A stretch of DNA of 64,000 nucleotides from NCBI RefSeq assembly GCF_002854065.1, contig NZ_CP024147.1. One strand, 5' to 3'. Position 1 is the first letter of the stretch. Every line of letters starts with the position of its first letter. The notes under the pieces are model-generated. The model searched no databases. It was not told the DNA's origin and worked only from the letters and a program-made list of their open reading frames with translations. This document shows positions 19,614 to 23,220 of this stretch, piece after piece. This stretch comes from Escherichia coli (GTDB taxonomy: Bacteria; Pseudomonadota; Gammaproteobacteria; Enterobacterales; Enterobacteriaceae). The position numbers and the translations under genes are program-made.

Positions 19614-20006
19614 ATGAAAAGATTACGCAATAAAATGACCACCGAAGAACTGGCTGAATGCCTCGGTGTGGCTAAACAAACTGTTAACCGTTGGATCAGA
19701 GAAAAAGGCTGGAAAACGGAAAAATTTCCCGGCGTGAAAGGCGGTCGTGCCAGACTTATTCTGGTCGATACGCAAGTTTGCGAGTTTATTCAGAACACGC
19801 CAGCCTTCCATAACACACCGATGCTTCTGGAAGCCGAAGAACCCCTTGCCGAATACGCACCGGGGATTCGCACTCCTGCTTATCGGCAAATCATAAGCGC
19901 AATAGACAACATGACTCACAGTGAGCAGGAAAAAGTTGCGCAATTTTTGTCACGCGAAGGAATTCGTAATTTCCTTGCTCGTCTCGACATAGATGAATCA
20001 GCTTGA
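19614..20006 (+). CDS. yfeD: YfeD, small HTH DNA-binding protein
   Basis: 130 aa (ELAECLGVAKQTVNRWIREKGW), tandem paralog of yfeC. Confidence 0.85.
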   Translation: MKRLRNKMTTEELAECLGVAKQTVNRWIREKGWKTEKFPGVKGGRARLILVDTQVCEFIQNTPAFHNTPMLLEAEEPLAEYAPGIRTPAYRQIISAIDNMTHSEQEKVAQFLSREGIRNFLARLDIDESA

Positions 20007-21754
20007 CATCCTCCACGCCCTGAATGACGAGGATCCCTGCTACGTTCAGGCTGTCGCCTGAATCATTTCGGTGGGTTCCTGCTTCAACGAGTGGCCTGAC
20101 TGCACCATCTCTCCACAGGCAAGAACGGCGTGCCCCGCCGCTAAAATGTTACGAGCGCCGTTTACATCGGCGTTCGCTGTATATCCACATACCTGGCATC
20201 TGAATTTACTTTGTGACAGGCGATTTTCTTTCGCTGTATGACCACAGCACGCGCAACGCTGGCTTGTGTACGCTGGCGGAACAGCAAGCACCTGACCGCC
20301 TCGCCAGAGCTGCTTGTACTCAAGCTGGCGGCGCATTTCATACCAGCCCTGATCCAGTATCGAACGGTTTAAACCTGATTTTGCCCGGACATTGCGCCCC
20401 GGCTGGCTGACCGTACCCGCTGCTGACTTTGACATGTTGCTGACCTTCAAATCCTCAATGACTATCATTGCGTGGTTTTTGCTGACGGTCGTTGTGACTT
20501 TGTGAAGGTAGTCTCTGCGGATATTTGCGGTACAGGAATGCAGTCGCTGTATTTTGCGTTTCTGCTTCTGCCAGTTATTGCTGAATTTGACCTTGCGGCT
20601 TAACTGTCGCTGAAGTCTCGCCAGCTTCTTCTGGTTTTTCTGAAAACTGTTTACAGGCTCAAAGACTGTGCCATCTGACAGCGTGGCGAGTTTAGCCACG
20701 CCAGCATCCAGTCCGACCATTGATGCTGAAGGGTGAACCGGAGTTGATACTTCACTTTCTGTCTGAATACTGATGTACCACTTACCGCAGGACTGGCTGA
20801 CAGTGACATTTTTCACAACACCCGTGACCTGACGGCTGTTCCGGTAGCGCATCCAGCCAAGTTTCGGCAGAAAAATACGGCTGTTTTCCTGATCGAGCTT
20901 AACGCCCTGCGGGTAGCGGAATGCATCATTCTGTCCCCGCTTTTTGAATCGGGGAAAAGCAGCCCGCTTCCGGAAGAAGTTTTTGTAAGCCCGCTCAAGG
21001 TCTTTCAGTGACTGTTGCAATGGCTGTGAGGGCGAATCTTTAAGCCATTGCGTTTCAGTGGCATTTTTCCACTCAACCAGCCAGGAAGCCATTTTCCCGT
21101 AAGGGATGTATTTATTACCGGCCTCATGATTCTCATTCTGACGTGCCAGAGCACGATTGAAAACGAAACGACATGCGCCTGCGAAGCGCCTCATTTCACG
21201 CTCCTGTTGACCAGCGGGTCTTAACTGGAATTTAAATGCCTGTAGTCGTTTCACAGGCCAAATGATACTTTGGTCTATGAATAAAGAAACCGATATCCGA
21301 CGGGGAAGGCATTGTGTTTTCCTGATGCATGTTCATCTGGTCTTTGTCACCAGATACCGACGTCAGATTTTTGACTATGACGCGACAGAAAAACTACGCA
21401 CTTACTTTTCAAATGTATGTGCTGATTTTGAAGCTGAACTGGTTGAAATGGATGGCGAACCAGATCACGTCCATTTGTTAATTAACTATCCTCCCAAACT
21501 GGCGATATCCAGTCTGGTAAACAGCCTCAAAGGCGTATCGGGTAGGTTACTGCGACGAGATCGACCAGATATTGCAGTCAGGTATTACTACAAAGGCGTT
21601 TTGTGGAGTCCTGGCTATTTTGCCAGTAGCTGCGGAGGTGCGCCAATATCCGTCATCCGCCAATACATTGAACAACAGCAAACACCTGGTCAGGTGGAAA
21701 ACCGCGCCTTATATCCCCGCCCTGAAGGACGGGGTTTTACGGCGCACCGGATAA
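20007..21754 (-). mobile_element. IS200/IS605-family insertion sequence (IS605-type divergent tnpA/tnpB; possibly IS609-like); boundaries approximate
   Basis: Divergent Y1/HUH tnpA and tnpB fill the yfeD-gltX gap; an 18-nt related motif (CGCCCTGAA-T/G-GACG-A/G-GG) occurs in the same orientation at both ends, as expected for IS200/IS605 subterminal hairpins; gltX terminator lies immediately outside. Confidence 0.7.
20046..21254 (-). CDS. tnpB: TnpB (OrfB) RuvC-like RNA-guided endonuclease family protein
   Basis: 402 aa, GTG start; RuvC-I GLDAGV, Ruv[11 protein letters not shown], zinc finger CACCGH...CQVCG, Ruv[14 protein letters not shown] all present. Confidence 0.85.
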
Positions 21755-21804
21755 ATAAAAAACGGCAGGGGTATCTCTCCTGCCGTTTATCTTTTATGCG
21801 CTAA
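21277..21804 (+). CDS. tnpA: IS200/IS605 TnpA (Y1 HUH transposase), C-terminally extended into flanking DNA
   Basis: HVHLVFVTRYRR (HUH motif) and catalytic-Tyr region VIRQYIEQQ; the ORF has no stop inside the element and reads through the gltX terminator to 21804. Confidence 0.7.
   Translation: MNKETDIRRGRHCVFLMHVHLVFVTRYRRQIFDYDATEKLRTYFSNVCADFEAELVEMDGEPDHVHLLINYPPKLAISSLVNSLKGVSGRLLRRDRPDIAVRYYYKGVLWSPGYFASSCGGAPISVIRQYIEQQQTPGQVENRALYPRPEGRGFTAHRINKKRQGYLSCRLSFMR
21755..21787 (-). terminator. gltX rho-independent terminator
   Basis: On minus strand AAACGGCAGG-AGAGATACC-CCTGCCGTTTTTT just downstream of the gltX stop. Confidence 0.7.
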
Positions 21805-23220
21805 TTACTGCTGATTTTCGCGTTCCGCAATAAAAGCCAGCGCTTTGTTGATACGCTCGATACTGCGGGTCTTACCGATTGCGTGAACGGTAACATCCAG
21901 TGCTGGAGACTGCCCCGCACCGGTTACGGCGACACGCAGCGGCATACCAACTTTACCCATACCCACTTCCAGCTCATCCGCCGTCGCCTGAATAGCGTGA
22001 TGAACGTTTTCAGCGGTCCAGTCAGTAATCGCGGCCAGTTTGTCACGAACCACTTCCAGCGGCTGACGCGCTACCGGACGCAGATGTTTTTTCGCCGCAT
22101 CGGCATCGAACTCAGCAAAATCTTCGTAGAAATAACGGCAGCTCTGTGCCATCTCTTTCAGCGTCTTGCAGCGTTCGCCCAGCAGTTTCACCAGATCAGC
22201 CAGCTGCGGGCCGTTACGGGTATCGATATTTTCCTGCTCAATGTGCCACTGTAAGTGAGTAGCAACATACTCCGGCGGCAGCGCGTTAATGTAGTGATGG
22301 TTCAGCCACAGCAGCTTGTCGGTGTTGAACGCACTGGCAGATTTGCTGACGGCATTCAAAGTGAAGTATTTGATCATCTCTTCACGAGTGAAGATTTCCT
22401 GATCGCCGTGGGACCAGCCCAGACGCACCAGATAGTTCAGCAGTGCTTCTGGCAAATAACCGTCATCACGATACTGCATTACGCTGACTGCCCCGTGACG
22501 TTTGGACAGTTTTTTGCCGTCATCGCCGTTGATCATAGAAACGTGCGCGTAAACCGGTACCGGCGCTTTCAGGGCTTTAAGAATATTGATCTGGCGTGGC
22601 GTGTTGTTGATATGGTCTTCGCCACGGATAACGTGGGTGATTTCCATATCCCAGTCATCGACAACCACACAGAAGTTATAGGTTGGGGAACCATCGGTAC
22701 GGCGGATAATAAGATCGTCCAGTTCCTGGTTGCTGAACTCGATCGGACCACGGATCTGATCGTCAAAAACAACAGAACCTTCCTGCGGGTTAGCAAAACG
22801 TACGACACACGGCTCATCATCAGCGTGATGCTCATGACTGTGGCGGCAGCGACCGTCATAACGCGGCTTCTCACCTTTCGCCATTTGCTCTTCGCGCAGC
22901 GCTTCCAGGCGCTCTTTAGAGCAATAGCATTTATAAGCAGTGCCCTCTTCCAGCATCTGATCGATCACCGCGTTGTAGCGATCAAAACGTTTGGTCTGGA
23001 AGTACGGACCTTCATCCCACTCCAGGCTCAGCCAGTTCATGCCATCCATAATGGCTTCGATAGCTTCCGGCGTGGAACGCTCAAGATCGGTGTCTTCAAT
23101 ACGCAGCACGAACTCACCGCCGTGATTACGTGCAAAAAGCCAGGAGTAAAGAGCAGTACGCGCGCCGCCAACGTGCAGATAGCCTGTTGGGCTTGGCGCG
23201 AAGCGAGTTTTGATTTTCAT
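21805..23220 (-). CDS. gltX: Glutamyl-tRNA synthetase
   Basis: 471 aa, [27 protein letters not shown] (HIGH-type motif) and KLSKR (KMSKS motif). Confidence 0.95.

Follow-up and report, generated by a model that had tools for sequence, protein, structure and literature searches.

Two divergent genes lie between yfeD (19614-20006, + strand) and gltX (21805-23220, - strand) in the 64,000-nucleotide stretch of Escherichia coli DNA analyzed here (the window), as seen in its list of open reading frames. One of them, the transposase gene tnpA, raises the question of why a transposase frame should have no stop codon inside its own mobile element and should run on through the terminator of a neighboring host gene. 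Translation of the + strand gave a frame of 180 codons from ATG 21262 (with an alternative ATG at 21277) to TAA 21802-21804, without any in-frame stop between, and a preliminary description of the locus that reported this open end was thus accurate for this copy. The TAA belongs to host sequence, lies beyond the T tract of the terminator and directly adjoins the gltX stop codon (21805-21807, - strand). The same description took the missing stop to be a property of the element, while the comparisons below trace it to a single-base mutation in a gene whose normal product has 143 amino acids. A long "transposase" frame that enters the terminator of its neighbor is in this way explained by one substitution in a known element.

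An IS609 element at the yfeD-gltX junction

A megablast search with positions 19950-21850 against complete E. coli genomes found a match to the element in 5410 of 5426 genomes, at a median of two places per genome, and one record (strain CUWW06) was 100% identical across the whole 1901-bp query. With thousands of E. coli records matching, the presence of the element is not due to chance. Copies at other loci (ydcO/ydcL as in K-12, yeaQ, ytfB, and further ones), some of which are annotated as "IS200/IS605-like element IS609", matched only the part of the window from 20002/20003 to 21754-21756. The empty yfeD-gltX site of another genome reads GAATCAGC on one side of the insertion point and ATAAATAAAAAACGG directly on the other, and in the occupied site a segment starting with TTGACATCC and ending with GCGCACCGG is inserted between GC and ATAA. 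The empty site and the copies at other loci thus delimit an element of the IS200/IS605 family, IS609, at 20003-21750 (1748 bp). The copies at ydcO, yeaQ, and ytfB contain exactly the same 1748-bp stretch, and six other copies also have this length. The top strand of IS609 is the - strand, and coordinates decrease from its left end to its right end. Its last base is 21750, and past 21754 the sequences diverge between loci; the end had been placed at about 21745-21754 beforehand, a range that the comparison with the empty site and three other loci narrows to this single base. The name IS609 rests on the naming by PGAP of copies that are 97.8-98.7% identical to the window over 1748 bp ("IS200/IS605-like element IS609 family transposase"), and the label "putative IS609 transposase TnpA" is used in GenBank for members of the same protein cluster.

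The target TTAT (- strand, 21751-21754; ATAA on the + strand) is host sequence in the empty site and adjoins the left end at all four loci, with no target duplication (CAGC/ATAA becomes CAGC-IS-ATAA). In the IS200/IS605 family, TTAT and TCAA are reported to be the commonest motifs for left-end and right-end cleavage, respectively (PMC9956272). The right end (20003-20045, - strand) has the cleavage-site TCAA at 20006-20003 and a hairpin at 20013-20032. DNA and RNA folding placed a subterminal hairpin at 21704-21745 in the left end, with the core CCCCGCCCTGAAGGACGGGG at 21715-21734. The two cores lie on the same strand, differ at 3 of 20 positions, and are the only two matches of the core in the window; the fold is clear at the left end (z = -3.0) and weak at the right end (z = -1.4). 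There are no terminal inverted repeats, and related subterminal hairpins occur in the same orientation at both ends. The element has every defining feature of IS200/IS605 elements (IS605 group) for which it was tested. It was also observed that the insertion point falls within the terminal part of yfeD: GCA TAA in the empty site is GCT TGA in the occupied one (window 20001-20006), as the right-end TTGA (+ strand) contributes the third base of the final yfeD codon and then a new stop codon for the gene. The YfeD protein is unchanged by this, being WP_000826499.1 in both occupied and empty sites.

Both proteins of the element were readily classified. Residues 1-143 of the extended TnpA (21262-21804, + strand) are a canonical Y1 TnpA, with matches to Pfam PF01797 over residues 18-139 (E 3.5e-41) and to NCBIfam NF033573 over residues 13-138 (144.5 bits against a cut-off of 55). 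Its HUH motif (H69-V70-H71) and catalytic tyrosine (Y135) line up with their counterparts in solved TnpA chains, and the matches to solved TnpA structures stop at residue 140-145. The second gene, tnpB (insQ; 20046-21254, - strand), is intact according to Pfam, NCBIfam, and PGAP and encodes 402 amino acids from a GTG start at 21254, in agreement with the PGAP coordinates in an identical record. Its product matched Pfam PF12323, PF01385, and PF07282, NCBIfam NF040570 (382 bits against a cut-off of 100), and solved TnpB structures over its full length (E 1e-54), and tnpB was full length in nine of the ten copies examined. The TnpB stretches GLDAGV, IEDL, and NADVNGA align with stretches of a solved TnpB-like (AI-designed) nuclease chain. 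A sub-threshold Rfam match to RAGATH-18 was seen at 20076-20119 (- strand; 29.5 bits, where the gathering score is 44.9; E 0.006), inside the 3' end of tnpB, which is the expected place of a TnpB guide-RNA scaffold. Besides this, the only Rfam match was one to sot0042, at chance level, over the left end and the terminator.

The lost tnpA stop codon

Alignment of the window with nine other IS609 copies (L003 to L011) showed where TnpA normally stops. The codon at 21691-21693 (+ strand) is TAG in L006, L007, L009, and L011, and in each of these four PGAP annotates an intact 143-aa TnpA that ends at this codon, 57 nt inside the element. The window has CAG (Gln) at the same position, as do L003, L004, L005, L008, and L010. 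Compared with the TAG copies, the window has C instead of T at base 21691 and no other difference nearby. A protein search recovered TnpA orthologues of 138-146 aa, sharing 80-87% identity, from Salmonella, Photorhabdus, Morganella, Proteus, Klebsiella, and Yersinia, and every one checked ends in QQQTPG, QQQTPS, or QQQTPD followed by the stop. Since both the intact E. coli copies and the orthologues in other genera end there, the internal stop is ancestral, and the window therefore carries a TAG-to-CAG stop-loss substitution. The alignment with other copies, which had been proposed as the check on where the protein normally ends, thereby gave a definite answer (TAG at 21691-21693), and the intact copies and the out-group proteins rule out a stop-less tnpA as a feature of the family. 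RefSeq (PGAP) already calls tnpA in an identical copy a pseudogene ("incomplete; missing C-terminus").

The substitution extends TnpA by 37 residues, namely Q144 and 19 further residues encoded by the left end (144-163) and 17 residues encoded by the flank (164-180), the latter being INKKRQGYLSCRLSFMR, with codon 164 at 21751-21753 as the first flank codon. The number of flank-encoded residues agrees with an earlier estimate of roughly 15-20; the abnormal tail as a whole is longer than that estimate, since 20 of its residues come from the left end. A C-terminus shared with other copies and encoded inside the element, which had been named as the finding that would count against this reading of the frame, was not seen: the TnpA tails differ at every locus after 21754, with 5 to >60 flank-encoded residues.

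Three other sources of the unusual reading frame were considered and rejected. The target TTAT/ATAA does not supply a TAA stop, as the frame there reads CGG ATA AAT. Deamination at a Dcm site is not the origin of the C/T difference, because the base that varies does not occupy the inner-C position of a CCWGG site. An error of sequencing or assembly can be discarded outright, given that a 46-mer with the CAG codon is present in 4026 complete-genome records and that the 1901 bp are 100% identical to an independent assembly. We also noted that the canonical stop lies within a short palindrome, CACCTG-GT-(T/C)AGGTG at 21683-21696, to the arms of which the C allele adds one pair; this may be a coincidence or may promote repeated T-to-C change through template switching.

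Transcription signals and predicted products

The divergent genes start very close to one another. The distance from the tnpB GTG at 21254 to the start of tnpA on the opposite strand is 7 nt (21255-21261) for ATG 21262 and 22 nt for ATG 21277, which bears out the proximity pointed out in the preliminary description. The 7-nt gap is the usual IS609 layout and was the same in all copies compared. With so short a gap, each promoter must sit within the 5' coding region of the other gene, and it is a reasonable expectation from this arrangement that the tnpA and tnpB promoters overlap. Within 21100-21400, a scan for the sigma-70 consensus gave nothing resembling a promoter, and its two hits elsewhere are the number expected from shuffled sequence. 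An inverted repeat, GCCTGTAGTCGTTTCACAGGC (21238-21258), covers the GTG start of tnpB, ends 3 nt 5' of the tnpA ATG, and contains the only AGG to which a ribosome could bind; the repeat may control tnpB, tnpA, or both.

Beyond the left end lies the host bidirectional yfeD/gltX terminator (21760-21798, with its stem at 21760-21788), recognized by a terminator scan and by RNA folding and identical in sequence in the empty site. The scan scored the hairpin as a + strand terminator, with the tail ATCTTTTATG at 21789-21798 (AUCUUUUAUG as RNA), and on the - strand it serves gltX. The - strand tail, TTTTTTATTTAT, ends at the insertion point: the TTAT target makes up the final four bases of the T tract in the gltX terminator (on the - strand CCTGCCG, then TTTTTTATTTAT, then the left end), and gltX retains its full terminator. 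On the other side of the element, yfeD is now 1.7 kb away from the hairpin that it formerly had in common with gltX. Parted from its terminator in this way, yfeD would give transcripts that enter the right end, antisense to tnpB.

For tnpA, it had been proposed that the frame crosses the gltX terminator hairpin and that any tnpA transcription would run antisense into gltX. The first point holds, since the frame passes through the hairpin at 21760-21788 and codons 167-179 cross the terminator. The second is doubtful on sequence grounds. A left-end hairpin, CCCCGCC-CUGAAG-GACGGGG followed by UUUU at 21735-21738 (21715-21738 together), is also terminator-like in the tnpA sense and is likewise translated through by the extended frame, so that two terminator-like hairpins stand on the tnpA strand after the lost stop and before the one at 21802, and antisense read-through into gltX would have to pass both. 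Some read-through is conceivable, as the host terminator has a break in its + strand T tract (UUUAUCUUUU), no more than four U follow the left-end hairpin, and ribosomes translating the frame could keep the hairpins from forming.

From these features we propose the following course of events. IS609 inserted 3' of the TTAT that closes the T tract of the gltX terminator and also overlaps the yfeD stop codon, and translation past 21691-21693 would then continue through 19 further left-end codons and 17 host codons to the TAA at 21802-21804. Transcripts that end at the left-end hairpin or at the host terminator would have no in-frame stop. Products of non-stop mRNAs in bacteria are subject to tmRNA tagging and degradation, and the same fate, tmRNA rescue and degradation, would be expected for non-stop tnpA products. 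Any full-length product would carry an unrelated 37-residue tail beginning 8 residues past the catalytic Tyr135, straight after its helix. The tnpB gene and the right end remain intact.

A segregating allele and its relation to known systems

The CAG codon is not confined to this copy. Exact 46-mers with CAG were found in 4026 of 4335 matching records and exact 46-mers with TAG in 1258 of 4301; these counts are per record, not per copy, and many genomes carry both alleles. Most IS609-bearing E. coli genomes have at least one copy without the canonical tnpA stop and with tnpB intact. IS609 occupies exactly this gltX site in about 1,100 of 5,426 genomes, and the TAG and CAG alleles are both present at the gltX, yeaQ, and ytfB sites. 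The exact 180-aa product is found in GenBank as "IS200/IS605 family transposase" on 155 contigs. When L003 to L011 were compared with the window, IS609 copies proved to be SNP mosaics, with variant blocks common to copies at different loci. Copies at the same site differ at 17-28 positions (the first pair compared at the gltX site at 28). The simplest explanation for CAG at every locus would be gene conversion between copies. The tnpA gene also has a second nonsense polymorphism, at codon 96 (21547-21549): where the window has TTA (Leu), the K-12 copy, L004, and a further copy at the gltX site (L005) have TGA. Apart from CAG, the frame is open in the window copy, L008, and L010. Two genomes labelled O157:H7 that were compared for an allele switch differed throughout their flanks, and one of them contained N bases.

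We consider it probable (about 0.85) that the window contains an ordinary IS609 copy with a single-base tnpA stop-loss, and that the CAG allele is common and segregates in a transposase gene undergoing decay, being neither a design feature nor a programmed fusion. A null or weak effect would be its most likely consequence, in view of the two hairpins before the new stop and of several indirect signs of decay. Further nonsense codons were present in three of six CAG copies and in none of four TAG copies, and pairwise pN/pS among the ten copies was 0.69 for tnpA and 0.24 for tnpB; as the ten copies are a non-random sample of SNP mosaics, both the link with nonsense codons and the pN/pS contrast are only indicative. 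The K-12 copy of IS609 gave no new insertions in mutation-accumulation lines (PMC5009759). Two observations speak against a null or weak allele: the tnpA frame of the window is otherwise fully open, with its HUH motif and catalytic tyrosine intact, and CAG is found at four loci at least, which could mean that the CAG allele has transposed. The literature searched for IS609 and insQ yielded no work on the expression of tnpA or on the CAG allele.

On a rival view, the stop-less form is the working IS609, and a longer TnpA, with a tail encoded partly by the left end and partly by the flank, drives transposition. In its favor, CAG is the more frequent allele and is present at the gltX, ydcO, yeaQ, and ytfB loci, three of the sampled CAG copies (the window, L008, and L010) have otherwise open frames, and the 180-aa frame recurs exactly on those 155 contigs. 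We nevertheless regard a working long form as very unlikely. All out-group orthologues stop at codon 144, and a tail that differs from locus to locus, with anything from 5 to >60 flank residues, can have had no common selection. Additional nonsense codons interrupt half of the CAG copies sampled, and the evident gene conversion between copies explains the spread across loci. The immobility of the K-12 copy also weighs against it, although that copy carries a premature stop as well.

About equally unlikely, in our assessment, is a recurrent T-to-C hot spot, in which template switching lengthens the palindrome at 21683-21696 from CACCTG-GT-TAGGTG to CACCTG-GT-CAGGTG and the allele is frequent at several loci through mutation pressure, not shared descent. 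The palindrome is visible and was also detected as a small hairpin, and TAG and CAG both occur at each of three insertion loci, but its arms of 5-6 bp and loop of 2-4 nt are weak for template switching. Copies at one locus that have different alleles here differ, moreover, at 17-28 other sites as well, in blocks common to copies at other loci, which is the pattern made by gene conversion, and no pair of copies was found that differs at this base alone.

The segregating stop-loss allele of an ordinary IS609 copy thus remains the preferred reading. The element is a known one, its stop-loss is already flagged as a pseudogene in public annotation, and nothing here falls outside known kinds. The case is of little importance beyond annotation, where ORF callers report a 180-aa transposase and RefSeq a pseudogene; it fits the general picture of TnpB outliving its transposase and adds no new principle. 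A more far-reaching idea, which we think rather unlikely, is that the stop-loss is one step in a species-wide taming of IS609, with tnpA switched off and TnpB and its guide RNA retained. If this were true, tnpA mRNA would end stop-less at the left-end hairpin or the host terminator and its product would be degraded, whereas purifying selection would preserve TnpB and the right-end guide RNA at fixed places in the chromosome. In that case IS609 would persist not as a transposon but as an RNA-guided nuclease locus that no longer moves, with a role for the host or in retention of the element.

Compared with canonical IS609 (143-aa TnpA, for example WP_024203870.1 and WP_000604912.1; 402-aa TnpB/InsQ), the window element is 97.8-98.7% identical over 1748 bp and has the same ends, TTAT target, TCAA right-end terminus, divergent layout, 7-nt gap, and tnpB; it differs in the C for T at 21691, with which the frame gains 37 codons and enters the flank. 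The K-12 copy, between ydcO and ydcL, also has CAG at codon 144 and is also a PGAP pseudogene, but its codon 96 is TGA and its frame closes 5 codons into the flank, whereas the window copy lacks any such premature stop. IS605 and IS606 of Helicobacter pylori have divergently ordered tnpA and tnpB. The window element resembles them in combining a Y1 HUH TnpA with TnpB, in having subterminal hairpins where terminal inverted repeats might be expected, and in inserting 3' of a short target without duplication, and it is set apart from the H. pylori elements by its host and its distant sequence, the solved IS608 TnpA matching only at E 1e-19. With IS200 of Salmonella and E. coli it shares the TnpA family (NF033573). 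IS200 has an end hairpin resembling a transcription terminator and a hairpin at the start of tnpA, and its tnpA expression is tightly limited. Unlike the window element, IS200 lacks tnpB, and a stop codon of its own ends its tnpA; judging from the sequence, tnpA expression in the window has probably been disabled by mutation, whereas IS200 limits it by regulation.
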